This document shows, one piece after another, positions 32,701-59,462 of a DNA stretch of 64,000 nt. This DNA is from Pseudomonadota bacterium (GTDB lineage Bacteria > Bdellovibrionota > Bdellovibrionia > Bdellovibrionales > SG-bin7): the NCBI GenBank assembly GCA_034439715.1, contig JAWXAY010000033.1, positions 1 through 64,000 on the forward strand, written 5' to 3'. A program made the position numbers and the translations under genes. Each line of letters starts with the position of its first letter. Position 1 is the stretch's first letter. The notes below the pieces were generated by a model, which saw only the letters and a program-made list of their open reading frames with translations, did no database searches and was not told where the DNA came from.

Positions 32701-35700
32701 GCCACGGTCAATGCTGATACTTCAACCCCACCAAAAAAATGTCTTTATGTTGAATATGTTATTGCTTCGGGAGCCACTGATGGCAACACCGCAGGGGTGG
32801 AGTTAGTTTTAACCACTGATTTTGCGAGCTCGGCGGGTTATGCGGTGGACTCAAATACTCTACCACCTCTTTTTCTGGGATCACCTGGTACAATTTCTGG
32901 AAGTTCCTCTGTAAATTGGGTGGGCGGTACAAGCACCAATTGGAATTTAGCTGCCAATTGGAGTCCTGCTACCGTTCCTACCAGCGGCATCAGCTGTCGG
33001 ATTGATAGCAGCGTTAGGAATCCTACCATTGACGTAACAAGCGGTAATGCCACTTGCAAAACTGTCATCATCGGAAACGGCACGCTGAATATTTCTACGG
33101 GGTACAAACTTTCTGTCTATGGTGGTTATACCAATACTGGTACGTTAAACTTGGCGGGAACTGCCACTCTTGAATTTGCGGACGGGGGGGTTTTATCAAA
33201 TCAAACAATTACAAGTAGTACGACCATTGGCAGTATTAGTTTTGCTAAAACTGCTGGTGGAAACGTCAACATCGGCTCAAGTGCTCTAACAGTTACATCG
33301 CTAGTAAATATGCAGGCTGGGCAAAACTTTGATTTTTTAATACCGAGTGGAAAAAATCTGACGTTTAGCGGAGGAGCCACTGTTAGTGCAGGAACCTTTA
33401 CCATTGCCGCTGGTGGTACGCTGACCATGGGCAATGCCACGGCTTTTACGGTTGGTGCCAATGGAACTTTAATTATGATTGGTAGTTCCGGTGCCAACTT
33501 AGCCACTATGACGGGTGGAAGTAATAAATTTAACGCTGTTATCAATGGAACAATCAAGGCGCAGTACTATAAGTTTGATCATCTATCATCAGCAGGAGTT
33601 AGTGTTGAAAGCGGTTCAACCATTGACGTCACTTACCATTTGCAAGATGGTAGTTTTACATATCCTGTCGACGCTTCGACCACGATGCTCTTTTTAAAAC
33701 GCCAAGTTCCAACTGATACAATGGACAACACCAAGTTTGATAAAGGCGGCTCCGCGGCAGCGACGCCAAAGAATATCAACACGACAGGTGCTGCGGCGGG
33801 TACTCTCACCATGAGTGGTTACTTAGGCGATATTGCTGGCGATGCCTTTGAAGTTGAAGGGTCTTATACAATTAGTTGGGGCGCAGGTGTAAATACCATA
33901 AATCTCACTCAAAGTGCTGCCACCGCACTTGGTTCAGTTACTGCTCCTTCGACAGCAAATTTGATGGGGCGTTTCGGCTTTAAACAAACTCTCGCGGGCG
34001 CGTCTTATAGCGATGCTGCACTTACAACTTTAAAACTAACCCTTAAAGGAACGGCCATAGCAGCAGATGTCAGTGAAGTTCGCATTTATTACGAGACAGA
34101 TTGTAACAGCGCTGGTGGTACACTTATCGGTTCGGGTATATTTAGTGGATCGCCGGGTACCGCAACATTTAATCTTAACCCTACTGATGCGATTATTCCC
34201 TTCAATGCTACAACACCACCTACCGTTTGCATTTATGTCCAATACGATATTCCATCTGGTGCCACAAACGGAAACACCGTAGGGGTCGAGGTTGCCATCA
34301 ATAGTCATGTCACCAATGACCAGGCCTACGCCATTGCTGACGCTACACCAGTACCAGTCAATTTAGGCACGGCGATTGCCATAAGTGGTGCGATAAATAC
34401 GACATGGAACGGATCGGTAAGTACCGCTTGGGGTACTGCCGGAAACTGGTCTGCGGGAGTGCCTACATCGACAGTTAATTGTACAATTCCTACTGGTTTG
34501 ACTGTCTGGCCAAACGTAGCAGCAGGAACAATCATTTGTAAGAGTGTAACTTTACAGGGCTCAATGACAATGTCAGCTGGAACTTGGGATGTGCACGGGG
34601 ATTTTATTAATACGGGCACTTTTACAAACTCAGGTGGTGCTTTAAACTTTCAAGGTACTGCTAATCAAAACTTTAGTAGCGGTAGCACTATATTTAATGT
34701 GACCTTTGGAAAAACGGCCGGAACCGTTGCCATTACTGGTGCAAGTGTACCTATTACATCGATCGATTTTACGGGAGGCTCGGCTTACACATTTAAAGTG
34801 AATTCTGGCAGAACGGTGACCTTTACAAATAACGTAACTGTTTTGACTGGTAAGACATTTGATATTTCAGCGGGCACGGTAAGAATGTCTAACGGAAGAA
34901 CTTTTACTATTAATAGTGGTGCGACGTTAAATATGATTGGAACTTCTGCAGTTTTAAATTCTGTCATGACTTCAACTGGTGGAGCCAACGCATTTAATGT
35001 GGTCATTGCGGGAACCATTGCAGCGAGATATTTTACTTTTGACCACTTGGGCGTCGCAGGTGTGGCTATAAATGGAACCGCTACTATAAACGCGACCAAT
35101 CAGTTGCAAGATTGTAATTTTACATATCCCGTAAACAACAATACCAAGTTTTTAACCCTAGCTATTCCCATTCCAGTTGCAACTTTGGACAATTGTAAAT
35201 TTGATTTGGCGGGATCGGTAGCAACAGGAACAAAAACGATTGATGCCTCTGCAGTGACTGGTGGCGCCCCCAACCCAGACTTGACACTTAATAATTGGTC
35301 AGGCGACGCCGGAGGCACCAGCAGCAGTATCAATAGTGGTACCTATACGATCGCTTGGGCGCCGGGACTCAACACCATAAATATCACTCGTGAAGCTGCC
35401 AGCCCCACCACAGTGAACGCCGGCACTACATATAACATGGGCCGCTTTGGCTTCCAGCAAGTTTTAGCCGGTACCTATGCAGATACAGATATAACAACAC
35501 TCAGGCTTTCAACCACTGGAACGGCTGTGGCCTCAGATATAAGTCAGGTCCGAGTCTATTACGATAGTGATTGTAACAACTCAGCCGGAACTCTTATTGG
35601 CACAGGAGCCTTTGCCGGTTCCCCATTAACTAAGACATTCACTTTCTTGGCGGGAGACGCGAGAATTCACTTTAGTGCAACATCCCCACCACTCCGTTGT

Positions 35701-38700
35701 ATTTATGTTGAGATGGATGTTGCTCCGGGTGCCGTTAATGCTCGGACCATAAGTGCAAAAATTGATGTCTCGGCTGATTTGGTAAATAGCCTCGGTTATG
35801 CTGTGGCGACGGCATTTCCTGTGGCACTTGCCACGACTCCCTCTACAATTGTGGGCGCTTCAAATACCACATGGACTGGAACTACAAGTACAGCTTGGAA
35901 TTTGGCGAGTAACTGGACAAGCGGAATTCCCGATTCCACAAAAACTTGCACTCTCGTCAACGTAGCGAACGATCCTATTATCAGTACAGCGACTCAAGCA
36001 TGCAGAAACGTAAGTATAGGTAACGGGATCTTAACAATTAACACCGGTTCAACTCTTCAAGTTTATGGAAACTACGACAATACTTCGGGTTCAGTTACAA
36101 TGAGCGGCACTGGTACTGTTCGCATGATGGACGGCGGAACCGGCAGCGCTCAGACTGTGGCGAGTACCGCCCAACCTATGAATAAATTAACATTTGATAA
36201 AACAACTGGCGGCTCAGTTCGTGTTAATTCTACTATGACAATTACTAATTTGACGATTCCTGCTGGGTCTAATTTCACTTTCCAAATTCCTGCGAGTACG
36301 ACACTGACGTTAACAAATGGTCTCGCAATTCCTGCAGGGACCGTCGACGTGCAAAATGGCGGAACTATATTGATGGCTAGCGGCACTACACTTAGTGTGA
36401 CTGGCGGGACATTTAAAACTTCGGGTGTTAATGATACCTTTGTGCAAAGCTCAGCTAACAAAGGCAAAGTAAGTCGTGTTTCTGGTTCGTGGTCGTTTAA
36501 CGCAACTTCTGGCACCGTCAATCTCACTGGGTTTTGGTTAGATTATTTAGATGCGAACGGTATGCAGATAAATGGCTCCACCACACTTTCAAATTTGAGT
36601 GGCGGTCAGTTTACAAATCTTGCTACGAACGGTAGGGGTATGCAAGTAAACACGAGCGGTGCCGTACCGGCAACCGCCGCAAATGTGGGATTTGAGTGGG
36701 GCGCATTCAATGCGGCAAATTCAGGTCAAAGTTGTTTAGCGGGCACTTATTATACCGTGTACGCAACGGCTTGTGGTGGAAATACAATTACGTTTACAGA
36801 ATGGTGGGGTAATTGGTGGCCAGGACAACAATCATTAGTTGACTGTTCCCCCGACGATCATATTTGGGATTCGGCAGAAGGGGCTTCATGCACCATTAGC
36901 ATGGCGTCGTCAGCTTCACCAGTTTCGCTATTGTCACTGGTTGCTAAACCGTACAATCATGCGGTGTCAATTGAATGGGTAACAGCTTCTGAACTTGATC
37001 ACCAGGGATTTAATGTTTACCGCAGTCTCGACATGTCTAGCGGATTTATTCAAATCAATTCTGAGTTGGTGAGAAACATTATTTCGTCAACGTCGTATAA
37101 AGGAAAATACCGCTTTGTGGATCACGAGGTTGAAAACGGTACTCTCTATTACTATATCATCGAAGATGTGGCTTTTAATGGTGCTAAAGAGAAGCATGGA
37201 CCCGTCAGTGCAAGACCCTTAATAATATTAACGGCTCCGCCGGCTGATCCCAGTGACACTAACTCTGGAACAACAGATCCTAATCCGAACGCAGGTAACG
37301 ATCCCTCGACCGGGCCTATCGCGACACCGGGAATGGTTGACCTCGGGAATGGCGTTCACATTTTAGCGCAAACTAAAAACTCTTTACGTATAGAAATCAT
37401 TCCGCCGCCAGAGACTTGGGCTAATTCTACTTGGAATGCGACTTATAAAACTCTTAAGGTCCCGGGATATTCGAACACGCTAACACCAGGATACCCAGAA
37501 CTTGTGGATAGGACTATTTTAGTTGAGGTCAGTGATCAACATAGTAGTGCTTTGGTTATCAATTCGAGTTTGGTTGAGACCGTTCCTGTTGCCAAAAAAG
37601 TTCAACCAGCACCGAATTGGGTGGCCAATGGTGGTGGCATTCTGCAAGCTTCGTATGCCGAGAATGCGGTCGCTTATAGTGCCGCTGGGTATCAGCCGGC
37701 GACTTATTATTCTTTGGATAGCGCGCTTAAAACTATCGGTGGCAAAACCTACTTAGCTCTAAATGTGTCACCATTTAAATACGATGCTGTTAATCAGCTT
37801 GTAAAAAATTCGAGCAAAATCGTACTTGATATTGCGCTTGATGGTGAACCTATATGGAATGGTCAGCCGCCTACCAGCGATCCGGCACTGTCGCCGTCAG
37901 CTGCAGATGGCGTGTTGCGAATTGGCTTTCGTAGCTCTGGACTTTATGAATTAACTTACAATGATTTTGTCACAGCTAATGTAGATGGTCCATTCGCGGG
38001 ACACGACTCCACTCAATTTCGCATGTATGTACGGGGAGAAGAAATACCCATTAGTATAATATCGACCAACAGTACTTTTTCGAGTGGTGATAAAATAAGA
38101 TATCACGTTGATCATTTGAGAAATTCCGAAGACGATGAAAATGAAGTCGTACTCAGCTCTTATAATGTTCAGAATAGTGCAAGTGCCCCCTTGCGAATGG
38201 ATCACCGGAACGCTGAACCGACAAGTTTTGGTGCTTCACCTGAAGTGGGGTCTTATTATAAAGTAGCAGTGGAGCAGGATGTTGACTTCTATCTGGACTA
38301 TCCATTAGGTCCTGATCAAGATCATTTTTTCTGGAAGCGCATTAAAGCTAACAGAAATGGTAATCGCAATCCCTATCCTACAGCGGCCAAAATGGACATA
38401 CCCATTGATCTTACTCGTTTAGATCAAAATTCGACTAGAAAAGTTTACCTGAGAGTTTATTTAAGAGCTCGAGCTAATATGACTACAAATGCGAGTCACC
38501 ACTTGGGCCTGTATTTAAATAACATCACCTATATGGTCGATGAAAAAGTATTTACCGAAGACAAGCCGACAGTATTAACTTTTGAGTTGAATCCTAACTT
38601 CTTTTTTGACGGCATAAACACGATCAAACTTTTAGCTCTTGGAGACATGGTTCCCGAAAACAATTGGGACATTATAGACATTGATCGCGTTGAAGTCGAA

Positions 38701-40344
38701 TTTGAAGGGTCCCGTTTAGCCATTGCAGACGTTGCCGAATTTACCAACCGGTATAGAGACCAAGCCATTTCCGTGTTTGGCTTTTCGAGCACAAATGTTG
38801 TGGCCTATGATGTTTCCCAGCAGAATAAACGGGTATCGATTCTAGATAATATTGCTTGGTCAGTGAGTGGCGGACTTAATGATGCCACCTTTGCCACAGT
38901 CAGTAATATTGAGGGCGACATGGGCACTCACTACGTTTTAATAAAAGACGGACAATATAAAAAGCCCACATCACTTTTACTACAAGAAGGCATTTATTTG
39001 CCTCTCAAATCTTCAGCGCAAGGAGCGGACTTAATTATTGTCGGTCCAAAATCTTTGCTAAGTTACACCGAAAAACTAGTCAGTGTTCGTGAAGGTGATG
39101 GTCTTCGTGTTGTTAGTGCGCCGCTGGAGCAAATCTATGCCGAATTTTCAGACGGTTTGAACACCAGTCGCGGTGTTAGAGATTTTATTCTCTACGCCTA
39201 CAATAATTGGACATTTCCCAAACCTAAATACTTACTAATTATTGGTGATGCAACATATGATCCCTTGGATAAACTTGGTTATGGCCGCGCTGACAAAGAT
39301 AGCATGACGCCATTGGCATTGGTCAGCGGAATCCATATTGACTTTGGCAGTGATAATTACTTTGTGGCGAATCCCGATGGTACAGACATTCCAATAATGT
39401 CTGTTGGACGAATTCCAACCTCTCAGCCAGATTTCTTAGAAGGCTATATCAATAAAATACTAGCCTACGAAGTCGGAAGCTCAGCGCCATCCACTGGGTA
39501 TAACTCGCACAATGCCGTTTTTATTAATGATAAGCCTTCATTTGGAGACAATTTCTCAAAAGGCGTTGATGAATTGTCCGCGGCGCTCTATTCATCAAGA
39601 CCAGATTACACCTCAACAAAACTAAATCGTGAGTTATACACAGACGTCAATTTCAAACAAAAAATTATTGACGAATTTAATTCAGGTCCGTTTTTAATGA
39701 CTTACCTTGGACACGGAGCTGAAGAACGCTGGATGTCCGATAGTTCTGGAAATCCTGTTTTTGGCAATACTGAGGCAAAGGCATTAACAAACGCGCGCCT
39801 ACCAATTGTTCTCGCCCTGAACTGTTTGAATTCCTATTTTTACGATCCAGATCCAGACCCTTCTTGGTCAGGACTGGGCGAAGAACTTATATTAAATGCC
39901 AATGGCGGTGCTATTGCATTTTGGGGATCTACAGCCATGACAACGCCTGGAACGCAAAAAAAGTTAGCTACGTCATTTATTAATGAATTCAGCGCTGAAA
40001 CCACTTTGGCAGTTCACGATGTTCGCTTAGGCGACATCTTGAGCCGCGCCAAACAAGTGCTCGGTTCCGACGAAAACTCTAAGGATACTATCCGCAGCTG
40101 GGCCCTTTTAGGCGATCCTTCTATGAAGTTACCGAGTGATGTTTTTAAAGCTCAAAGCGTTGATCAATCCTCAACAAGAAAGAGTAAAGGCTTTTTATCT
40201 TGCGGTAGTATCGACATTGGCTCAAGTGGCGGTAGTGGTCCAAATTGGCCCGCGCTTTTTGAAATGCTATTGCTGGTAGGATTTATTATGTTGTTGAGGA
40301 TTCGCTTGGTTCTAGTGCCCGCCAAACAACGAATCAAACGATAA
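29704..40344 (+). CDS. Giant repetitive surface protein with C-terminal C25 (gingipain/PorU-like) cysteine peptidase and membrane anchor
   Basis: Signal ending AQA (alternative start ATG 29779); five ~500-aa repeats; FN3-like PVSL..EWVTASELDHQGFNVYRS; C25 motifs KYLLIIGDATYDP, VGRIP, TYLGHG, LNCLN, LLGDP; CGSI-linker-TM-basic tail. Confidence 0.88.
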   Translation: MGRLWTGLSTSHSFYYLFHFSLLQPMQFAAFFSVVFLASTFQNQAQAACGGTVRTWDSGAGSANWSAAANWSADDIPNTTTEDVVIVSGAQIPNFDTAYSVGCLEIQSGTLTANRNNRVLTINGDYFRNLTANSFTVGSASFTLKMGVPGSPVQTLENYDLLEILEIGNNNTVTSTKPFRMNTQLQFTAGWTGTLKLNGDLDYRGGAVTIPAGGTVIIGSGVTWASTANITVAGTLKIMPGATLKFNTGRTLTVNNNASLIIAGASGNSGKISGQDFNDSWTFNMNGILNADYFLLSRMAVSGLNIGATGIVQKLDNGEFHYPQLNGDAIRVANGATLPATMNQLGFSNDANLAGTKNFNSAYTGTAITVNNWTGNGNTANERADTGNKILWGAQGGTKLSLVDFSNPPATINQATTVTGGTFSFALNQASTLTNITSIKISMLGTATTSDIDYITVYADAAGSMDCVLTVGTDTVIANQVSLSSSPLSYTVAIASGVVTTSSDTAKHCIHVQVRTTGTAQDNKTIRLGVQGTNDVVNSQGYTFSDSAAPPVLASPDIVIVGDVIRKWQGDISTAWSNAGNWSGGVVPTGTRDCQVGVGTNVAVLDATGTCQVANFLTGGTLNFNATGRILNLTGGINIDPGFIFQTPTNVGTLNFSGAVAEGVSIATPVPAHVTINNTGAAGNDYVEINGDTTIGDASGNGGNVTVTNGTLRVNAPYTLTIKGNLTCAALAGNGIEIAAGATLKMGNNRTITINNGCTFTLVGNINQNVVVTSDNIANSYNVIVAAGGIISANYYKFENLGTLGLNIAGTINATNHLQNGTFRYPRGNNGKMLDLDVAVPTNSMDNMTFTSGGSSATGTTNIDTATNGAGGTLTLNNYTGDLAGPFFDNDPTYLLAWLNATNTIEITQEATSPVTLNAGSTYNMGRFGFKQAMAGASFVNTDITSLRLTLTGTASSNDISDVKIYYDATCAGAGGVLVDSGAFSGNPASRVFTFTAGEATVNADTSTPPKKCLYVEYVIASGATDGNTAGVELVLTTDFASSAGYAVDSNTLPPLFLGSPGTISGSSSVNWVGGTSTNWNLAANWSPATVPTSGISCRIDSSVRNPTIDVTSGNATCKTVIIGNGTLNISTGYKLSVYGGYTNTGTLNLAGTATLEFADGGVLSNQTITSSTTIGSISFAKTAGGNVNIGSSALTVTSLVNMQAGQNFDFLIPSGKNLTFSGGATVSAGTFTIAAGGTLTMGNATAFTVGANGTLIMIGSSGANLATMTGGSNKFNAVINGTIKAQYYKFDHLSSAGVSVESGSTIDVTYHLQDGSFTYPVDASTTMLFLKRQVPTDTMDNTKFDKGGSAAATPKNINTTGAAAGTLTMSGYLGDIAGDAFEVEGSYTISWGAGVNTINLTQSAATALGSVTAPSTANLMGRFGFKQTLAGASYSDAALTTLKLTLKGTAIAADVSEVRIYYETDCNSAGGTLIGSGIFSGSPGTATFNLNPTDAIIPFNATTPPTVCIYVQYDIPSGATNGNTVGVEVAINSHVTNDQAYAIADATPVPVNLGTAIAISGAINTTWNGSVSTAWGTAGNWSAGVPTSTVNCTIPTGLTVWPNVAAGTIICKSVTLQGSMTMSAGTWDVHGDFINTGTFTNSGGALNFQGTANQNFSSGSTIFNVTFGKTAGTVAITGASVPITSIDFTGGSAYTFKVNSGRTVTFTNNVTVLTGKTFDISAGTVRMSNGRTFTINSGATLNMIGTSAVLNSVMTSTGGANAFNVVIAGTIAARYFTFDHLGVAGVAINGTATINATNQLQDCNFTYPVNNNTKFLTLAIPIPVATLDNCKFDLAGSVATGTKTIDASAVTGGAPNPDLTLNNWSGDAGGTSSSINSGTYTIAWAPGLNTINITREAASPTTVNAGTTYNMGRFGFQQVLAGTYADTDITTLRLSTTGTAVASDISQVRVYYDSDCNNSAGTLIGTGAFAGSPLTKTFTFLAGDARIHFSATSPPLRCIYVEMDVAPGAVNARTISAKIDVSADLVNSLGYAVATAFPVALATTPSTIVGASNTTWTGTTSTAWNLASNWTSGIPDSTKTCTLVNVANDPIISTATQACRNVSIGNGILTINTGSTLQVYGNYDNTSGSVTMSGTGTVRMMDGGTGSAQTVASTAQPMNKLTFDKTTGGSVRVNSTMTITNLTIPAGSNFTFQIPASTTLTLTNGLAIPAGTVDVQNGGTILMASGTTLSVTGGTFKTSGVNDTFVQSSANKGKVSRVSGSWSFNATSGTVNLTGFWLDYLDANGMQINGSTTLSNLSGGQFTNLATNGRGMQVNTSGAVPATAANVGFEWGAFNAANSGQSCLAGTYYTVYATACGGNTITFTEWWGNWWPGQQSLVDCSPDDHIWDSAEGASCTISMASSASPVSLLSLVAKPYNHAVSIEWVTASELDHQGFNVYRSLDMSSGFIQINSELVRNIISSTSYKGKYRFVDHEVENGTLYYYIIEDVAFNGAKEKHGPVSARPLIILTAPPADPSDTNSGTTDPNPNAGNDPSTGPIATPGMVDLGNGVHILAQTKNSLRIEIIPPPETWANSTWNATYKTLKVPGYSNTLTPGYPELVDRTILVEVSDQHSSALVINSSLVETVPVAKKVQPAPNWVANGGGILQASYAENAVAYSAAGYQPATYYSLDSALKTIGGKTYLALNVSPFKYDAVNQLVKNSSKIVLDIALDGEPIWNGQPPTSDPALSPSAADGVLRIGFRSSGLYELTYNDFVTANVDGPFAGHDSTQFRMYVRGEEIPISIISTNSTFSSGDKIRYHVDHLRNSEDDENEVVLSSYNVQNSASAPLRMDHRNAEPTSFGASPEVGSYYKVAVEQDVDFYLDYPLGPDQDHFFWKRIKANRNGNRNPYPTAAKMDIPIDLTRLDQNSTRKVYLRVYLRARANMTTNASHHLGLYLNNITYMVDEKVFTEDKPTVLTFELNPNFFFDGINTIKLLALGDMVPENNWDIIDIDRVEVEFEGSRLAIADVAEFTNRYRDQAISVFGFSSTNVVAYDVSQQNKRVSILDNIAWSVSGGLNDATFATVSNIEGDMGTHYVLIKDGQYKKPTSLLLQEGIYLPLKSSAQGADLIIVGPKSLLSYTEKLVSVREGDGLRVVSAPLEQIYAEFSDGLNTSRGVRDFILYAYNNWTFPKPKYLLIIGDATYDPLDKLGYGRADKDSMTPLALVSGIHIDFGSDNYFVANPDGTDIPIMSVGRIPTSQPDFLEGYINKILAYEVGSSAPSTGYNSHNAVFINDKPSFGDNFSKGVDELSAALYSSRPDYTSTKLNRELYTDVNFKQKIIDEFNSGPFLMTYLGHGAEERWMSDSSGNPVFGNTEAKALTNARLPIVLALNCLNSYFYDPDPDPSWSGLGEELILNANGGAIAFWGSTAMTTPGTQKKLATSFINEFSAETTLAVHDVRLGDILSRAKQVLGSDENSKDTIRSWALLGDPSMKLPSDVFKAQSVDQSSTRKSKGFLSCGSIDIGSSGGSGPNWPALFEMLLLVGFIMLLRIRLVLVPAKQRIKR
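29869..36830 (+). repeat. Five protein-level repeats (spacing 512, 504, 496, 489 aa), the last incomplete
   Basis: W-x-G-x2-ST-x-W-x4-NW-type motif at nt 29869, 31405, 32917, 34405, 35872; recurring MGRFGF(K/Q)Q, GTA-x-ASDIS, PP-x2-C-x-YV blocks. Confidence 0.85.
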
Positions 40345-48080: not shown

Positions 48081-48620
48081 ATGAAATCAAAACAATTGTC
48101 ATTTTTCAAAAAACTAACACTTGAGCATGGTGGGACTTTGGGAAAGGGTAAACGCAAGGGTGCGAGACCGATCTCGACGAAACACCCCATTCACCTTGTT
48201 TATCGGGCTTCTAAAGCTAGAGCGAAGCTCTCTCTTCTAAATTTCTCTCGACGAATAGACAAAATTCTTTCTCAACAGGCTCAAAAGTTTGGCGTTTCGA
48301 TTTACGAAAAGGCTAACTCTGGTAACCACCTTCACCTCTTAATTAGAGGTAAAAAGCGAGTGGGAATTCAAAAATTTTATATTTCTACGACAGCGCTTAT
48401 AGCACGCCTCGTGACAGGTACAAAAAAAGGTAATAAGTTTGGGAAATTCTGGGATCACTTAATATTTTCTAGGGTGCTCACCTCCTGGAGTCGTGAATTT
48501 TTGGATTTGAAGGATTACCTTGTACAAAACACACTAGAGACTTTAGGCCTTGTGCCCTTTAGGGCACGGCTGCGGCACGGAGCGCGGCATACGAACTTGG
48601 CGAGATCAAATTCAAGTTAA
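48081..48620 (+). mobile_element. Y1 (HUH) transposase, IS200/RAYT-like
   Basis: PIHLVYR, HUH motif NHLHLL, KFWD, FSR, candidate catalytic Tyr in DYLVQN; hairpins upstream. Confidence 0.65.
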
Positions 48621-52189: not shown

Positions 52190-52663
52190 CTATTGCCGGG
52201 CTTTTTGTTCTTTTACGATTTCAGTAAGGGCGGCGGAAGTCGGGCTCGAGTATTCCATGCCTTCCACAAACTTATGGTTTTCACGAGTATCAGCATCAAG
52301 CTTACCAATAATGACATTGGCCTTGCGCAATCTCTCAGCAAGACTAGTCAACATTGACCTCGCCCAATCAGGCAGTTCATCCAAAATAGTGTTATAGGCG
52401 GCTTCGTCGACCATTACGGCGCGCACTTCAGTTAACGCTTGGGCTGTTGCAGAGCGAGGCTGTTGGTCTAAAAGTGCAAACTCGCCAAGAGAGTGACCTT
52501 CTTCAACTACCGCGATTGAGAGCTTGTTTCCTTTAGGACCTTTTTTATGGATCTCTACTCGGCCTTCTTGAATTACGTAAAACTGAAAACTTTTTTCGCC
52601 CTCGTTAAAAAGAATATCGCCAGCGTTAAAGCGTACGCCTTCCAATTGTTGTTTTTCAAACAT
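52190..52663 (-). CDS. Cyclic nucleotide-binding domain protein
   Basis: [21 protein letters not shown]; no clear HTH. Confidence 0.85.
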
Positions 52664-53058
52664 TACTTAGTTGTCTTTTTGGCCTTTTTTTTTAGTTTGG
52701 CCCTGATTGTTTTTGAAAATTTCTGCTTATGCGTTGTGGCTTTCTTTTTTACAGTTTCGAAGTGCCCCTTAGCCTCTGATTTTGATTTTTGAAAGAAGCC
52801 AATAACACTGGCGATTTCCTTATCAAACTGCCCTTGCAATTTATTGATTGTTTTTAGGACTTCATTATATCGACTCTCAAGCTGCTTAACTCGACCTCTA
52901 TTCTTAGGGCTCAGCTTGGATTGAAAGTCCACTTTACGAACTTCACTAGCCAGTCTAACAACTTCAGATTTTATTTTGTCCACGCTGTTAAGTTTAAGAA
53001 TTTCGTCTTTAAGCTTTTTAATTTTGTTTTTGTCTAATTTAAAATCGCCGATCATCAC
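52663..53058 (-). CDS. Basic coiled-coil hypothetical protein
   Basis: 131-aa Lys-rich ORF coupled to the cNMP gene, SD AGGGG. Confidence 0.65.
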   Translation of the reverse strand: MMIGDFKLDKNKIKKLKDEILKLNSVDKIKSEVVRLASEVRKVDFQSKLSPKNRGRVKQLESRYNEVLKTINKLQGQFDKEIASVIGFFQKSKSEAKGHFETVKKKATTHKQKFSKTIRAKLKKKAKKTTK

Positions 53059-53389
53059 ATGAGCCCCCTTGTTTTAGGCCCAAGTATATTCATTTATTTG
53101 GCACTAAGCTAGCGCCAAATTGCGCACCATCGGTGCCATCTAACGGCGTTTTTTTGTAATAAGACCACCGATTGTGTCGTCTCTGTTTACAGTTTCTCAA
53201 GTAAATTCCTCGATTATACGCGCTTTGGTAAAAATCGCTAACTTCGAATTTACCAAACTGTGACCTAGCCATCAGTCTAAAACCCATCTAAAATTTAAGC
53301 ACTTACAGCTTTCTATTTTCAAATTCAAGCCTCTACATTCAAAAGAAAAGGCCCTTTTTGTCACTTTGCCTTCACAAATGTCAAAAAAA

Positions 53390-53406
53390 TTGGCAGGGGG
53401 TTTGCT
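53390..53406 (+). promoter_or_regulatory. Sigma54 promoter
   Basis: TTGGCAGGGGGTTTGCT (GG-N10-GC); IHF-like ATTTAA-GCAC-TTA at 53293-53305. Confidence 0.65.
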
Positions 53407-53502
53407 TATTTGAGCCTCGAACACGCTTTATAAAATTGGGCCTTGGCTTGGTGCTATGGTTCGAGAATTTAATTTAACAACATTTTTCATAAGGAGTAAA
53501 AT

Positions 53503-54558
53503 ATGAAAAAAATTATATCGTCGATTGCTGTCGTTGCAGTCGCCTTTAGTATGTCGGCACAAGCTGAACAGAAACAAGAAATGGAAACTATTAATATTGA
53601 GGGTTTAGATAGCAAGAATACGACTCTTACTAGCCTTGGTCAAACTGGAGTTAACCTTCTTGTCAACACTGGAAACTTAGTTATTGCTTTAAACAATAAT
53701 ATAAACGCACTTCCAGATGGTTTAGACAAAAAAGCTGATGATCTTCAGAAATGTATTGCTGAAAACTTTGAGAAGTTCGAAAAATATGATGGCGATAAAC
53801 CGGTTACAGTTGCAATGTGTACTGTTGGTTCAGTCGTAGATGCAGTCGGTATTGTTATCGAAAAAACAACAGGCGCTGCTTTTCGTATAACTGCAGTTCC
53901 CGGAAAACTTTTGGCAGATGCTGGCAGTTCACTGCTTGCCGATGTGGCGGTAGTTGTTGATTCAATGAACGATAAAGATATGACTAAAATCCCTGGTATG
54001 TGGGCATATCAACTTGGTTACGTTATCGCTGCAGGTTCTGTTGGCGTTGTTGGCGAAATCACTGGCGAGATGATTCAATTTATTTCTGATAAAGGTCAGA
54101 AAACAGTTGAATTAGTAATCAATGGTGTTCGCACTGGAATCAAAGTTGCGCATAAAGGTGCCGTTATACTTGTGCACTACTCTATTAAAGCCGGTAAAGA
54201 AGTTGGCGAGCGCGTAGTTCTAGTTGTTGGCGACGCTTTAGTATCAGCTATTGACACTTACTCTACTCTTCAGTGTGGTCTTGCTACTGGTGCAAAAGCT
54301 GGCACTAACATCGTTCTTGATCTTTTCCGATCACAAGATACGATCGATCAAAGAGAACGCGAAGAGCGTGGTAATGCTTGTGACTACAATCGCAATCTTG
54401 CTGCAGATGCAGGTCACATCGTATTAAAAATATTAACTATTTCTATCCGAGCGTTCACAAACGAATCGTATGAAGAGTTTATGGCTAAAGGTGGAAAAAA
54501 CAATTTCTGCCCCAACGGCTATAAAAGTGATCGCAAAGGTTTTCAAGTTTGCAAATAA
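53503..54558 (+). CDS. Secreted amphipathic-helical protein, paralog A
   Basis: Signal peptide ending AQA; SD AAGGAG; motifs shared with 58560-59462. Confidence 0.82.
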   Translation: MKKIISSIAVVAVAFSMSAQAEQKQEMETINIEGLDSKNTTLTSLGQTGVNLLVNTGNLVIALNNNINALPDGLDKKADDLQKCIAENFEKFEKYDGDKPVTVAMCTVGSVVDAVGIVIEKTTGAAFRITAVPGKLLADAGSSLLADVAVVVDSMNDKDMTKIPGMWAYQLGYVIAAGSVGVVGEITGEMIQFISDKGQKTVELVINGVRTGIKVAHKGAVILVHYSIKAGKEVGERVVLVVGDALVSAIDTYSTLQCGLATGAKAGTNIVLDLFRSQDTIDQREREERGNACDYNRNLAADAGHIVLKILTISIRAFTNESYEEFMAKGGKNNFCPNGYKSDRKGFQVCK

Positions 54559-54592
54559 ATTATTAATATAATTTATTTGTTAGTAATTAAAC

Positions 54593-54626
54593 GCAGCCTC
54601 TTCGTTAGTGGAGAGGCTGTTTTTTT
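54593..54626 (+). terminator. Intrinsic terminator between paralogs A and B
   Basis: GCAGCCTCTTC-GTTAGT-GGAGAGGCTGT-TTTTTT. Confidence 0.8.
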
Positions 54627-54652
54627 ATGAAGAGAAAAGTCAGGAGTAAATT

Positions 54653-55486
54653 ATGAAAACAAAAACCTTCCTAACCCTCTTGGTGTTCTCTGTGTTTTGT
54701 GTCAATGCATTTTGTGAAGAATCTGAAGTCTGTCCTAATCCTCAAGTTGAAAAATATAAATCTGTACAAAAAGAGTTTGATAACGTGGCCATGGATGATG
54801 CCATGCGAACTGGCGCCCGAGTCGTTGTCATGATCCCGGGTATAATAAAGAAGAATTTTGATCTTGAAAACTTTAACGGCGATGTCTGGCAAGAAATCAA
54901 AGGTGGCTACGAATGTATGAAAGACACCCTGACTGGCGGCGCTGAATGGTACAACACGGTTCAGAAAGCTACTTTTTGCCCCGTGTCCACATTAACTGGT
55001 GTAGTTGTTGATACCAGTGAAACAATAGTAAAAAGCGTGGCGCAAGTGCCACACGTCATAGGTGACCTAGCTGACTTAGGTGATAATCTCGCCCAAGCAG
55101 GTCTTGAAAAAACTTTAGAGCTTTCAAGAAACCCCGATTTCATTTTAGCCTTTGCAGGTATTCTTGGGACAATACCCATGGGTGTGATTGACCTCGCCTT
55201 TAAGGCAACGAGTTTAGTTACCCATTTTGTTGGAAACCTTGTGGATACCATTATTAATTATAATTTGGCAGGAGCTGCAATGTCGGCGGTGAGAATTGGC
55301 CAAGGGTTTTATTTATTGAATCCTGAGACGATAGTTGATAGCAGCAAAGAACTTGGCTGCCGGGTGGGGACAATTCCAGAGGTGATTTATTATTCATTGG
55401 GTGATAAAATTGAACCTAGACCGATAAAATCTTCGATTAAACCTTATTGTGATGTACGCCGCGGCGATTGTACTGAGTACGATTAG
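54653..55486 (+). CDS. Secreted amphipathic-helical protein, paralog B
   Basis: Signal peptide; SD CAGGAG; C-terminal KPYCDVRRGDC shared with 58560-59462. Confidence 0.8.
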   Translation: MKTKTFLTLLVFSVFCVNAFCEESEVCPNPQVEKYKSVQKEFDNVAMDDAMRTGARVVVMIPGIIKKNFDLENFNGDVWQEIKGGYECMKDTLTGGAEWYNTVQKATFCPVSTLTGVVVDTSETIVKSVAQVPHVIGDLADLGDNLAQAGLEKTLELSRNPDFILAFAGILGTIPMGVIDLAFKATSLVTHFVGNLVDTIINYNLAGAAMSAVRIGQGFYLLNPETIVDSSKELGCRVGTIPEVIYYSLGDKIEPRPIKSSIKPYCDVRRGDCTEYD

Positions 55487-55553
55487 CCTTAGCCAAAGGT
55501 CCAATTCGGCGTCACCATTTGTTAATTTTCTCGAGTCCGACTAAAATGGGAGC

Positions 55554-56831
55554 ATGGCCAAAACCCCGCTACCCAAAAAACTAAATATTTGTTTTGTTGC
55601 TAAAAAGTTTCCGATACTTTCTCGGGTGGCGGATCATGGTTTTTTATGGCCAATTGCTAAAGGCCTTACTCAGCTGGGACACAAAGTTACTATACTTTCT
55701 AGCCAAAATCCCCAAGGCAAAAAAGAATTTATCGAAGGCAACATTCGCGCGCTCTATTTAAAAGAAGCCACATTTTCAAGTTCGGCCTCTTTTAGTGATC
55801 TCGTTCACGCCAAATTTGTTGAGCTGCATAGCAAAGAGCCTTTTCATATTCTACATTCACTTGATACGTCAGCCGCGAGTTTAGAAAAGTTAAAAAAACA
55901 GCTTAAGTTTGCCCTGGCCTTTGATGTGGAGGCCACTCAAATTGCTCAGGTGCTCGCAATTATCGGTATGGCCCAAGAAAACTTCGCTAGCATTATTAAT
56001 ACAGGCACTGCCGTATCCTATAAGTTTTTGAGAACTTATTTAGGATCTGACAGAGTCCTGCTTAATTCTGCCGACGGTATGTTCGTCACGACTCCTCAGC
56101 AGCGGATTGTTCTAGAGCGCTACTATTTGTATCCCGACACTCGCATTTATACCGTTCCTTATGGTGTAGAAATGAAAAACTTAGAGTTGAAGGCCAAATC
56201 AGAAGGGCTCATGAAAGAGGTGGGTTTGCCAGAGGGAACTCAAGTGGTGTTAACTATTACTGACATGACTGAACTCGAGGAGATCAGACATTTGCTCGTG
56301 GCTTTTCAAAAGGTAACAATTAAAAAGCCGAGTACTCGTTTAATTATTATTGGCAATGGTCCGCTAAAAAAAGAAATAGAATATGAGATGCTAACCTTGG
56401 CACTAGGATCCCGAGTGATCTTTGCAGGTGCTGTTTCGGCAGATGTGATTTCAGACTATATTAGCCTGTGTGATGTTTATGTAAATTTAAGCGCCCGTAC
56501 CAGCGGGTTCGAACCTACGATGCTCGAAGCAATGGCGCAAAAAAAGGTAATTGTAGGTTCTGAAGTCAGCCCCATTGCCAATATCGTAGAAGACGGACGT
56601 GATGGGTTTTTAATTAGACCTGCCGACACTCTAGCACTTTGCACACTCTTAATAGATATTTTCGAGTTCCCACTTTTATCGCGTGAAATTGGCGAAAGTG
56701 CCCGCAAAAAAGTCGTAAACTTGTTTGATACCGAGAAAATGGTTAATGAGACTACAGGGGCCTATTTTTCAATTTTGGAGCGAACAGGCTGGTATTCTAA
56801 ATCTCAGACTAAGGACCTGCCCTTATTTTAA
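55554..56831 (+). CDS. GT4 family glycosyltransferase
   Basis: LTQLGHKVTIL, LIIIGNGP, GFEPTMLEAMA, IVEDGRDGFL. Confidence 0.88.
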   Translation: MAKTPLPKKLNICFVAKKFPILSRVADHGFLWPIAKGLTQLGHKVTILSSQNPQGKKEFIEGNIRALYLKEATFSSSASFSDLVHAKFVELHSKEPFHILHSLDTSAASLEKLKKQLKFALAFDVEATQIAQVLAIIGMAQENFASIINTGTAVSYKFLRTYLGSDRVLLNSADGMFVTTPQQRIVLERYYLYPDTRIYTVPYGVEMKNLELKAKSEGLMKEVGLPEGTQVVLTITDMTELEEIRHLLVAFQKVTIKKPSTRLIIIGNGPLKKEIEYEMLTLALGSRVIFAGAVSADVISDYISLCDVYVNLSARTSGFEPTMLEAMAQKKVIVGSEVSPIANIVEDGRDGFLIRPADTLALCTLLIDIFEFPLLSREIGESARKKVVNLFDTEKMVNETTGAYFSILERTGWYSKSQTKDLPLF

Positions 56832-56970
56832 CTTCTGAGATATAAAATATCCCATGACGCTAAACAGAATGGAAAATAATTAAAATAATTCCTTCCATGG
56901 CCTAAGGCCTCTAAGTATACTTATTAGTAGTTTCAATAGTTTATGCAATATTCAGCAGGGATTTAAGACC

Positions 56971-57258
56971 ATGACTAAAGCAGACTTAATAAACCTAATT
57001 TCTGAAAAAGCCAGTATCACGCGAGTAAAAGCCGAAACTGTGGTGAACACTGTTTTTGATACAATTACTGAAGCTTTGGTGAAGGACGACCGCATCGAAA
57101 TTCGTGGATTTGGCTCATTTGTCAATCGTGCTTACAATGCTCGCCAAGGACGAAATCCACGTACTGGTGAAGTTATTGATGTCGCACAAAAGCGACGACC
57201 ATTTTTTAAAGTTGGCAAAGAGTTACGTGAAGAGATTAACAAAGGCCCCAAAAAATAA
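56971..57258 (+). CDS. IHF-beta/HU family DNA-binding protein
   Basis: MTKADLI, RIEIRGFGSF, GRNPRTGE, PFFKVGKELRE. Confidence 0.93.
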   Translation: MTKADLINLISEKASITRVKAETVVNTVFDTITEALVKDDRIEIRGFGSFVNRAYNARQGRNPRTGEVIDVAQKRRPFFKVGKELREEINKGPKK

Positions 57259-57273
57259 TAAGTAGAACAAATA

Positions 57274-58470
57274 TTAGTCGCGAAAAACTGGGATCTCACG
57301 AATATCTTTAATTCCAAAAAAAGCCATAAATAGTCGATCCACTCCTAATGCAATACCACCACTGGGAGGCATTCCTAGTCTTAAAGCTTCGATAAGACCG
57401 TCATCTACTGGAGGAACAAAACTTCCAAGGTCGCGTTTCTCTTTTTGCCAAGTTAAAAACCTTTTAGAGTTTTCTATTGGGTCATTGAGTTCGTCATAGG
57501 CGTTGGCAATTTCGAATCCTCTAAAATAGACTTCAAATCGATCGGCCCAACCCTTTTCATTTAGGCGAGCTAAGGCAGATTGTGACGGCGGAAAGTCTTT
57601 TAGAATGAGCGGAGTCACGAGCCCTAAGCGAGGCTCCACATGTTCAATGAATAATCTGTGGAATAAATCATTCCAGGAGTCGCTGGGATCAAAATGTGTT
57701 CGTCTGTCTATCGCAAGCTTTTTGAGTTCCTCGCGTGAAGTCTGTGGAGTTAAATCGAAATTAAGGTATTCGCGAAATACCTCGGCCATGGATTTAAGTG
57801 TGATAGATCCATCAAAGCGGATTGCACCTTCGATGTTATCATTCACATACTTAAAAAGATCATAGACGTCTTTTTGTATGGCGTCGATTCCAGCAAAACT
57901 TCGGTACCACTCAAGCATTGTGAATTCAGCTGCGTGCTGAGGTGTATTTTCTTCTTGCCGAAAGCAAGACCTAATTTCAAAAGCATTCTCAATGCCCAAA
58001 ACTAACGCCCGCTTTAAATGAAACTCAGGGCTTGTAGGCAGACAGTAACCATTGCTGGTAAAGGGCCTTAAAAAAGTCTCTGAACCAGAAGAAGGCACCA
58101 GTGTCGGCGTTTGAATTTCTAAAAAGCCGCTTGTCTCAAAAAATTTTCTTAAGGATTTTAGAAACCCATTCCATTTGAGCAAATGGTTTTTCTCTTTATT
58201 TATTTGTTCGAGCGATTTTTGGCCAATATTTGGCGCCAGAAGTTGAATGTGATGTTCTTTCATTAATACAATATCGCCGAGTACGAGAATATCCGATGCC
58301 TTGAATCCATGAGTTATAAATTCGCCTTGCTGGGTAAACTCACCTAAAATCCCATCGGCTATGGGGTCTGACCAGCGACTTTTAATAAGCTCATTTTTAA
58401 TGTCATCTTTAAGGGCTTTTGGGTAAGGCCGCCACAATGATTTTAGATAAATTTCTCGGGTCATATTCAT
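57274..58470 (-). CDS. epmA: EF-P lysine aminoacylase EpmA (GenX/PoxA)
   Basis: LPTSPEFHLKR, CFRQEE..HAAEFTMLEWYR, DRFEVY..EIANAYDEL, GMPPSGGIALGVDRL. Confidence 0.88.
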   Translation of the reverse strand: MNMTREIYLKSLWRPYPKALKDDIKNELIKSRWSDPIADGILGEFTQQGEFITHGFKASDILVLGDIVLMKEHHIQLLAPNIGQKSLEQINKEKNHLLKWNGFLKSLRKFFETSGFLEIQTPTLVPSSGSETFLRPFTSNGYCLPTSPEFHLKRALVLGIENAFEIRSCFRQEENTPQHAAEFTMLEWYRSFAGIDAIQKDVYDLFKYVNDNIEGAIRFDGSITLKSMAEVFREYLNFDLTPQTSREELKKLAIDRRTHFDPSDSWNDLFHRLFIEHVEPRLGLVTPLILKDFPPSQSALARLNEKGWADRFEVYFRGFEIANAYDELNDPIENSKRFLTWQKEKRDLGSFVPPVDDGLIEALRLGMPPSGGIALGVDRLFMAFFGIKDIREIPVFRD

Positions 58471-58496
58471 CGGGTCATTTTCAACTTATGGGCCTC

Positions 58497-58530
58497 AAAA
58501 AAAACAGCCCCTTTATTTTCATAAAGGGGC
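58497..58530 (-). terminator. Intrinsic terminator of paralog C
   Basis: Minus strand GCCCCTTTAT-GAAA-ATAAAGGGGC-TG-T8. Confidence 0.85.
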
Positions 58531-58559
58531 CTTGAATAAATACTAAATAACAAATAATT

Positions 58560-59462
58560 TTATTTACCAGAATGATCTAAATCACAGCGGCCGTATCGAA
58601 CATCGCAGTACGGTTTAACCGGAGTACCACCAGCCATCATGTCTTCAAAGGTCTCATTCATGATCACTCTAATTGGAAGTGACATAACACGAGCAAAAAC
58701 CATTAAGAGTCCGTTTCCTGCAGCGCTAAGATCGCCATGTACTACATCATGAAGAACCAAAACTACTGCCTTTGCAGCGCCATAAGCATCTTTACCAAGT
58801 ACACTAACTCGGCCTATAACTGCGTCAGCTACGATAACAACTGCATCAGAAGCATACTTGATACCAGTTCTTACACCGTCAACTACAAGCTCTACAGCTT
58901 TGCCAGCAACAGTTGAAACAGTATCTAATACCCAAGCTCCAGCTTGAGCAGCGCGACCAATTACTTGAGAAGCAACGCAAACACCAAGTTGAACTATAAA
59001 GAAACCAGGAATGTGGCTGTAAGCTTCCATCGCATCCCACGAGCGTTTGCTAGTATCTAACATGATGTTAGCAATATCTTTTGCAAACTTAGAGGGAACG
59101 GCAATTACTTCTTGAACGCCACTAACACCAGTTAAGATGATAGCAGTAACCATTTCAGTACCGATTAGAATGGGGCAAAGAACAGGAGCAGTAACACCTT
59201 CTCCGTCAACTTCGTCCATGCGATCGCTTAAACACTTAACAAGTTCAGTAGCATGTTCCGCAAGAGCGGGCATTGCTTTTAACGCAGCTTCGCTGAAAGA
59301 AACCACTAAGTTTCCAACATTAATAACGACGTTTACACCAGCGTGAACAATTTCACCGGCTTTTTCTGTAGGAAGATTGTTGCCATCTCTATGGCCTGCA
59401 TTAGCGGTCATCGATACAGCAACAGCTAATCCTGCCAATGAAGAAATAATAGATTTTCTCAT
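58560..59462 (-). CDS. Secreted amphipathic-helical protein, paralog C
   Basis: Signal peptide ending ANA; SD AAGGAG; motifs shared with both A and B. Confidence 0.82.
   Translation of the reverse strand: MRKSIISSLAGLAVAVSMTANAGHRDGNNLPTEKAGEIVHAGVNVVINVGNLVVSFSEAALKAMPALAEHATELVKCLSDRMDEVDGEGVTAPVLCPILIGTEMVTAIILTGVSGVQEVIAVPSKFAKDIANIMLDTSKRSWDAMEAYSHIPGFFIVQLGVCVASQVIGRAAQAGAWVLDTVSTVAGKAVELVVDGVRTGIKYASDAVVIVADAVIGRVSVLGKDAYGAAKAVVLVLHDVVHGDLSAAGNGLLMVFARVMSLPIRVIMNETFEDMMAGGTPVKPYCDVRYGRCDLDHSGK

Follow-up and report, generated by a model that had tools for sequence, protein, structure and literature searches.

A fast-evolving family of putatively exported amphipathic-helix proteins in an uncultured Bdellovibrionales bacterium, possibly a coat for lipid surfaces

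Three genes, here named A, B and C, were compared in a window of 64,000 nucleotides (the whole stretch of DNA that was analysed) from an uncultured member of the Bdellovibrionales related to Bdellovibrio. As judged from alignments and profiles, the three products are paralogues and belong to a single fast-evolving protein family. The reading preferred here, with a probability of roughly 40%, is that this family forms an abundant exported coat on lipid surfaces, similar to apolipoproteins, with B as a minor partner. Newly seen in this work were the codon bias of A and C, the periodicity of about 98 degrees, the terminators after A and C, and the occupation of the A and B slots by other subfamilies, in mixed pairs, or their vacancy in related genomes.

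All three open reading frames described in an earlier sequence-only reading were present with the starts it had given, each with an AGGAG ribosome site, and the N-termini resembled Sec signal peptides when read by eye, as had been claimed (Table 1). The trio is not contiguous, as three other genes lie between B and C. It is also not one operon, because C is located 3 kb away on the opposite strand and A is followed by a terminator. The hairpin between A and B had a counterpart 3' of the slot-1 gene in genomes G002 and G003, and the hairpin following C had one in all four genomes of the host's taxonomic family. No credible terminator was found between slot 2 and the GT4 gene. Contigs from runs X4, X6 and X7 spanned 30 of the 30 bins of the window with no differing letters listed, and those from run X8 covered 25 of the 30; these runs share year and habitat and possibly stem from one campaign. 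No RNA record holding the window was among those listed.

Table 1. Positions of the family genes and adjoining features within the window
Feature	Position	Strand	Remarks
Gene A (slot 1)	53503-54558	+	351 aa; codon-bias rank 6 of 3,070
Terminator-like hairpin and T run, A/B interval	54593..54620	+	-18.4 kcal/mol
Gene B (slot 2)	54653-55486	+	277 aa; distant member; ordinary codon bias
B tail motif KPYCDVRRGDC	55439..55471	+	B/C alignment and genome ORF scan
GT4 glycosyltransferase gene	55554..56831	+	Directly 3' of slot 2; family scan
Gene presumed to be HU/IHF-like	56971..57258	+	Not a family member; ORF list
Class II tRNA-synthetase-like gene, presumably EpmA-like	57274..58470	-	Synteny anchor; not a family member
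Intrinsic-terminator-like hairpin	58506..58531	-	3' of C
Gene C	59462-58560	-	300 aa; codon-bias rank 3 of 3,070; conserved member
C tail motif KPYCDVRYGRC	58584..58616	-	B/C alignment and genome ORF scan

A and C were clear paralogues with 30% identity (pairwise E 3e-23), and the motifs previously quoted for this pair were present in their alignment. The pairwise comparison of A and B was not significant (best E 1.1), and B and C aligned only in a 12-residue tail (E 1e-4). The membership of B therefore rests on profiles made without B, which detected it with an E value of 1e-4 and an HH probability of 91%. Thus, of the three-member family proposed earlier, the A/C pair was confirmed by direct alignment and B was joined through profiles, while full-length pairwise similarity of B to A or C was not obtained. 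The pattern [YF]C[DE]xRxGxC occurred in two of 8,812 genome ORFs, B and C, in agreement with the reported common tail KPYCDVR.G.C. Five of the nine codons shared in this tail differed synonymously, and recent gene conversion was rejected on this ground. The KPYCDVR tail was absent from P0012, the closest relative of B, and from most orthologues of C. A looser pattern, [DE]x?Rx?G, picked after inspection of the data, was present in 14 of 28 family tails; as a genome-wide C-terminal sorting signal it was rejected, with 32 of 921 signal-peptide-like proteins carrying it versus 111 of 3,070 overall.

Each protein contained a cysteine pair (Cys84/Cys106 in A, Cys88/Cys109 in B and Cys77/Cys96 in C) with the spacings C-x21-C, C-x20-C and C-x18-C and a VP after the pair, as the sequence-only reading had described; the VP came 23-25 residues further on in each. 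Across 25 members, Met1 and the two cysteines were the only invariant positions. With the cysteines alone conserved no catalytic site is apparent, and the earlier statement that no enzyme motif could be recognised is supported.

In keeping with the proposal of a new system, no match to a characterised family was obtained in the Pfam, NCBIfam, PHROG and PDB-sequence scans or by Foldseek with the C model. Pfam gave no match for A, B or C; for 23 members it gave no apolipoprotein, perilipin or synuclein match, and none relevant to ClyA, Hbl, Nhe, Ahl or Mak at E<=0.05. NCBIfam yielded nothing usable for 14 members, as its hits were confined to single members and had a best E of 0.0047. PHROGs gave no match for six members, and the PDB sequences nothing usable, with E values no better than 0.067 for designed helical repeats. 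Known S-layer, fibre and phage structural families were likewise unmatched in these four scans. Three structure predictions gave no confident compact fold from shallow alignments. The AlphaFold2 model of C reached a pLDDT of 51.7 and a pTM of 0.32 (19 sequences) and that of B 39.8 and 0.27 (9 sequences). The low-confidence model of C contained strands in its N-terminal half, and Foldseek retrieved nothing with it at E<=0.001. In the Atlas structural comparison the best TM was 0.48; C and P0032, a member of subfamily D, led to the same cluster of 165-aa hypothetical proteins (commonest taxon Absconditibacteriota) with 0.76, which is below the level that counts. No description of the family appeared among the papers listed on hendecads and on Bdellovibrio secreted helices, pores, apolipoproteins and prey lipids, a literature set with few subscription papers.

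The long Val/Gly/Ala amphipathic stretches noted earlier were borne out by a comparison with the 956 genome proteins of 250-400 aa, among which B, C and A ranked 2, 6 and 9 in helical hydrophobic moment and 136, 1 and 32 in V+G+A content. On the Eisenberg scale 20 of 25 members had their hydrophobicity peak at 97-99 degrees, and on the Kyte-Doolittle scale 19; the corresponding counts were 12 and 9 for the 100 proteins with the strongest periodicity out of 1,514 from the genome. The family counts are overstated, because the 25 members are related by descent. The median peak was at 98.0 degrees. C had the strongest helical periodicity in comparison with the 1,514 proteins, and the peak of B, at 99.5-100 degrees, was outside the 97-99 range. 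The periodicity was unbroken over 100 or more residues. Self-similarity had maxima at lags 7, 11, 4, 8, 14, 18 and 22, with lag 7 slightly above lag 11 and lag 22 above lag 21, and no discrete 11-mer repeats were found by this analysis.

The hydrophobic faces were rich in Val, Ala, Thr and Gly. The ratio (V+A+T)/(L+F+W+Y+M) was 2.02 for C, 1.69 for A and 1.33 for B; across the genome its median was 0.87 and its 95th percentile 1.54. Mean hydropathy was near zero for mature A and B and 0.46 for C. Subfamilies A, B, C, A3 and B2 each had an apolar segment of 17-26 residues in a comparable position (residues 163-184 in A, 163-179 in B and 147-169 in C). The longest uncharged run among 27 members was 41 residues (33 in A, 17 in B and 23 in C), and the uncharged runs of the D and E subfamilies were mostly short and weakly apolar.

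With A, B and C excluded from the reference, C and A ranked third and sixth in codon bias among the 3,070 genes, and B ranked 1,058. In the local comparisons, the slot-1 gene and C took the first two places in G002 (19 genes) and G003 (24 genes), and C took the first place in G001 (10 genes). A and C are therefore predicted from codon bias to be among the most abundant proteins of the cell, and B is predicted to be expressed at a much lower level than either. The bias of A and C, which is at the level of GroEL, would be more in line with a structural protein made in bulk than with a toxin.

Family members of 256-389 aa were detected in 15 of 384 Bdellovibrionales genomes, all from uncultured organisms among the carriers found. 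They span six of the 13 taxonomic families of the order, with the outer families reached via chained weak links. C, and a GT4 gene at the slot-adjacent site, were present in all four genomes of the host's taxonomic family. In these relatives the A and B slots were occupied by other, non-orthologous subfamilies in mixed pairs or were vacant; in G001 both slots were vacant, GT4 was retained, and C was the sole member at the locus. In the genomes outside this taxonomic family the profile searches gave a single member each, and its neighbours differed, without the GT4 link. The single members and the C-only locus of G001 fit a protein that functions on its own. The exchange of subfamilies in the slots suggests strong diversifying pressure, either on the cell surface or where the cell meets its prey. 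Several matches were discarded: P0030 and P0031 as compositional, the G470 and G629 proteins because they had no cysteines, and 10 profile matches (E 4e-4 to 8e-3; two loci read) that covered the signal-peptide end alone. Matches in G387, G295 and G006 were left out of the membership.

The periodicity of 98 degrees favours the apolipoprotein-like or lipid-scavenging option among those raised before. The 3-11 helix is described as having been characterised in apolipoproteins, alpha-synuclein and perilipins and as folding upon lipid contact (PMC5889406). In the proposed lipid coat, A, B and C would be exported via Sec, and the long 11/3 amphipathic helices predicted for them would fold down on a lipid surface to give a coat or belt of helices packed next to one another. 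A disulfide between the invariant cysteines would staple the first helical hairpin, and the central 17-26-residue apolar segment may dip into one leaflet. A and C would be the major, largely independent subunits; B, a minor subunit, would arise together with GT4 by read-through of the A terminator. Candidate targets are the outer membrane or vesicles of the organism itself, or prey membrane that has been set free. It is decidedly unlikely, but conceivable, that prey membrane is stripped into lipoprotein-like particles for uptake by these bulk, disulfide-stapled proteins, with swappable paralogue slots that tune them to different prey lipids.

The family resembles apolipoprotein A-I, perilipin 4 and alpha-synuclein (PMC5889406) in its long amphipathic helices, its periodicity of about 98 degrees and the absence of a catalytic motif, and Plin4 also in having faces poor in bulky residues. 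Unlike these proteins, it is bacterial, carries a putative signal peptide and an invariant cysteine pair, has a central apolar segment, lacks discrete 11- or 33-mer repeats and shows no sequence or Pfam match to them. At best, it may work like the exchangeable apolipoproteins, of which it is not a member. Phasins and other bacterial lipid-body coat proteins are abundant amphipathic-helix coats of hydrophobic surfaces; phasins are cytoplasmic, without signal peptides or disulfides. The A/B/C family may likewise be an abundant bacterial helical coat for hydrophobic surfaces, but it is predicted to be exported, has a cysteine pair and gave no Pfam match. The lipid coat is weakened by the fact that small-residue enrichment is general among extracellular proteins, in which cheap small residues are usual (PMC2932507). 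It is also weakened because a broad apolar face and a central apolar segment would fit a pore wall equally well. Further points against it are the off-range peak of B, the score of lag 7 slightly above lag 11 in the absence of discrete 11-mer repeats, and the strands in the N-terminal half of the C model, although confidence in that model is low.

A rather unlikely alternative is a protein-only surface polymer, such as an S-layer-like sheet, sheath or fibre of right-handed 11/3 coiled coils or helical hairpins, with A and C as major and B as minor components. Hendecad periodicity is also a mark of right-handed coiled coils, and tetrabrachion is an example of such an S-layer or coiled-coil surface protein. 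Predicted export, predicted great abundance, fast divergence, the glycosyltransferase neighbour and the 11-residue periodicity would be shared with this class, and small-residue faces suit tight helix packing. The extreme codon bias of A and C agrees with a polymer, as does the terminator, which would give a high A to low B ratio. GT4, adjoining the slots throughout the host's taxonomic family, may glycosylate the polymer, and the exchange of non-orthologous subfamilies within the same slots would be surface diversification. However, the proteins are short, have no recognisable anchor domain and gave no match to established families of S-layer, fibre or phage structural proteins, and the link to GT4 is not kept outside that taxonomic family, while GT4 persists in G001 despite both slots being vacant. 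Another reading is a soluble carrier or chaperone, abundant in the periplasm or secreted, whose helices form a bundle with self-buried apolar faces or with one hydrophobic ligand inside and would never coat a membrane. This would explain the putative signal peptide, the presumed disulfide pair, the absence of catalytic residues and the near-zero hydropathy of mature A and B. It is very doubtful, since periodicity unbroken over at least 100 residues and the hydropathy of C are unusual for a compact bundle, and no such fold was predicted with confidence from the shallow alignments.

The Bdellovibrionales are a predatory order, which agrees with an alpha-helical pore-former or membrane-lytic protein, mostly homo-oligomeric, acting against prey or competitors; we consider this somewhat improbable. 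Three nearby helical paralogues of about 300 aa recall AhlABC, NheABC, Hbl, SmhABC and MakABE, and the range of protein sizes, the layout of helix, apolar tip and long helix, and the tail motif common to B and C at the protein level are in its favour. The two long predicted helices are separated by a short apolar segment (17-23 residues in A, B and C; 17-26 in the family), which is close to the 16-23-residue tip reported for AhlC and NheC, the C components of this class (PMC6602965), but the hydrophobic span of 54-63 residues reported there for AhlB and NheB occurs in no component, and the longest uncharged run falls short of it. The ClyA, Hbl and Nhe families were unmatched by Pfam, PDB sequences or Foldseek, the latter with the low-confidence C model. 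The hendecad-like periodicity, the weakly apolar D and E subfamilies and the level of codon bias also speak against a toxin of this kind. The fixed hetero-oligomeric A+B+C pore suggested by the sequence-only reading is highly improbable: terminators and a change of strand separate the genes, predicted expression is very unequal, with B low, and partners are reassorted or missing in relatives, down to single genes outside the host's taxonomic family.

If the lipid coat is correct, apolipoproteins and perilipins would have an exported equivalent in bacteria, without detectable kinship to them and made in bulk by a predator that is obliged to handle prey membrane. It would offer a direct handle on how lipid is moved or protected by such predators, and lipid discs could gain a new helical scaffold. 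However the proteins work, two genes near the top of the codon-bias ranking of this genome encode an unannotated family.

The open reading frames proposed by the sequence-only reading for A, B and C, three predicted-exported amphipathic-helix genes, were present, each with an N-terminus resembling a signal peptide as judged by eye. Cysteine pairs followed by VP occurred in all three as claimed, and the amphipathic stretches were recovered by helical hydrophobic moment, for which B, C and A ranked 2, 6 and 9 among 956 proteins. The proposed pairwise kinship held in part: A and C aligned over 226 residues with 30% identity (E 3e-23), A and B gave no significant pairwise alignment, and the match between B and C was confined to the C-terminal tail (E 1e-4). 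The common tail motif itself was confirmed. Its pattern occurred in two of 8,812 genome ORFs, namely B and C, and 5 of 9 shared codons differ, so the likeness is kept at the protein level. Paralogue tails within one genome were alike (YCDVR.G in B and C; YADARMG and YEDARG in G002, another genome of the host's family), and the ending ERAG.SF was found in the C-type proteins P0005-P0007 and also in the B3-type P0027. Contigs from three other sequencing runs covered 30 of 30 bins of the window with no difference listed and a fourth covered 25 of 30, all these runs being 2018 microbial-mat metagenomes that may belong to one campaign.

Positions of A, B, C and other features of the window
Feature	Position	Strand	Remarks
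A	53503-54558	+	ORF with ribosome site
B	54653-55486	+	ORF with ribosome site
C	59462-58560	-	ORF with ribosome site
131-aa gene	52663-53058	-	Lys-rich product, no Pfam match; in 89 of 151 genomes of the order
Transposase gene	48081-48620	+	Stand-alone IS200-like Y1 domain (Pfam PF01797, E 6e-7)
3,546-aa protein gene	29704-40344	+	C25 peptidase at end; no tie to the A/B/C family seen

On profile evidence B is a distant member of the A/C family. In a search of about 8,800 sequences, a profile made without B-type sequences retrieved B with an E value of 1.3e-4 and P0012, a relative of B, with one of 5e-7. B was also retrieved when B2 and B3 were combined in a profile (E 1.5e-5), and HH-align gave 90.9% (E 1.1e-6), although B against A/C alone reached only 3.6% (E 0.012). 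With single-sequence searches, C orthologues turned up in all three further genomes from the host's family and in none of the 57 searched from other families. When 1.84 billion representatives were searched with a profile, 18 matched: 16 members and two that were compositional. In a tree the members formed the subfamilies C, A, A2, A3, B, B2 and B3. Iterating the search across the order (384 genomes) brought in subfamily D (G633, G635, G631, G402), subfamily E (G543, G456, G606) and more distant proteins in G041, G004, G616 and G008, all with the cysteine pair and a signal-peptide-like start. The family range was at least 15 of 384 genomes and 6 of 13 families, a lower bound because only 5-6 candidates were scored per genome; the widest profile matched in 0 of 44 genomes of one genus, probably Bdellovibrio. 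These outer memberships are chained by uneven links: D matched the whole family at 94% (signal peptides included), the B/A3 side at 93% over 203 columns and A/C at 33%, D+E matched A/C at 4.6%, and the D+E profile did not directly retrieve A, B or C. Two signal-peptide proteins of about 290 aa without cysteine (L064:1483-2352 in G470, L066:1030-2073 in G629) had synuclein-like Val/Ala/Ser/Thr/Lys helices and matched the profile of the family with E values around 1e-6 to 1e-7; they are either an analogue or a remote member. At the loci of D-type and G616 members (L082, L081, L111) a ParA-like gene adjoined in G631, G635 and G616, and a response regulator adjoined D-type members in G631, G633 and G635, a neighbourhood that is a second conserved site in family f5.

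Searches of Pfam, NCBIfam, PHROGs and PDB sequences yielded no usable match. The AlphaFold models were poor (pLDDT 51.7 for C; 39.8 for B, all helix), and Foldseek had no match for that of C. The absence of a recognised enzyme motif was borne out: beyond Met1 and the two cysteines no residue was invariant across the 25 members aligned, and this speaks against an enzyme.

The gene order was A, terminator, B, the glycosyltransferase gene GT4 and a gene we take to be HU-like (+), then a presumably EpmA-like gene and C on the opposite strand. Terminator-like hairpins (-10.9 to -22.8 kcal/mol) stood behind the gene in slot 1, the position of A, in each of three genomes and behind C in each of four, and no credible terminator followed slot 2, the position of B, in 3 of 3. 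B could be a minor partner made by read-through of A's terminator. The slots held A/B in the window, A3/B2 in G002 and A2/B3 in G003 and were empty in G001; contigs of matching length point to the combinations A/B2/C and A3/B3 in two further assemblies. At 22 of 26 loci in other families the EpmA-like gene directly adjoined the 131-aa gene, which here lies upstream of A, and no member of the family stood at that place; the block is therefore lineage-specific. There these two genes are divergent; at window positions 52663-59462 they share a strand and are separated by the A-B-GT4-HU block, with C on the far side, so that A and C lie at the two ends of a probable inversion. The 131-aa gene usually adjoins a glycine-cleavage P-like gene, and by eye its product resembles a phasin or a nucleoid protein. 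In G003 (L021:2107-5225) the stretch from slot 2 to GT4 has a 360-aa gene with what we assume to be a C-terminal HNH-like motif, and on either side of it is encoded one of two proteins that resemble each other and look secreted (272 and about 280 aa).

Abundance of A and C is predicted from codon bias. Among 3,070 genes C, A and B ranked 3, 6 and 1,058 against eight presumed housekeeping genes, A, B and C being excluded from the reference, and 3, 7 and 1,120 in an iterative version. When a simpler index was used, the first two places went to C and the gene in slot 1, both among the 19 local genes of G002 and among the 24 of G003. Slot 2 was fifth in both genomes, and in G001 C led the 10 local genes. 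At loci of other families than the host's, the member ranked first among 2-5 local genes in 8 of 10 cases (exceptions G631 and G004).

The hydrophobicity periodicity had a median of 98.0 degrees across 25 members (A 97.5, B 99.5), the signal of C being stronger than any other in the genome. Of the 25 members 20 peaked at 97-99 degrees, and of the 100 proteins with the strongest periodicity among 1,514 from the genome 12 did so; a second scale gave 19 of 25 and 9 of 100. These counts are overstated by the relatedness of the members. Such periodicity is that of the 11/3 helix, described for apolipoproteins, synuclein and perilipins (PMC5889406). Discrete repeats were not found, self-similarity at lag 7 being slightly above lag 11. 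Val, Ala, Gly, Thr and Ile made up most of the apolar faces; cheap residues are favoured by extracellular proteins in any case (PMC2932507).

With the homology, periodicity, composition, codon bias and gene layout of the family established, the reading we favour, at a probability of about 0.4, is that A, B and C are exported, disulfide-stapled coat or belt proteins of a lipid surface. After export the cysteine pair would form the staple, and the long helices would fold on the lipid and pack together, with A and C as the bulk products and B a minor partner. A lipid-free surface polymer, which we consider rather unlikely, would account for abundance and slot variation equally well. An alpha-pore, which would explain the apolar tip, is judged just as improbable. 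Most subfamilies of the host's family have a mid-chain apolar segment of 17-26 residues, similar to AhlC/NheC, and no member has a stretch near the 54-63 residues of AhlB/NheB (PMC6602965). Homology to the ClyA tripartite toxins, a single operon and a long hydrophobic span were each tested and absent, and the family lies outside these toxins. Mixed slot pairs, the site left empty in one genome and the occurrence of single copies elsewhere speak against partners that are cognate and obligate; the fixed A+B+C hetero-oligomeric pore proposed earlier thus lost its footing, and a strict three-part pore is now highly improbable. A soluble carrier is the least likely of the rivals, with little chance of being correct.

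Of the apolipoprotein-like option the resemblance in helix type survived; for want of homology the proteins lie outside the apolipoprotein, perilipin and synuclein families. An apolipoprotein system acting on prey lipid is doubtful. No description of A/B/C was found among the papers listed on Bdellovibrio and hendecads, and they are rated a new, unannotated family.
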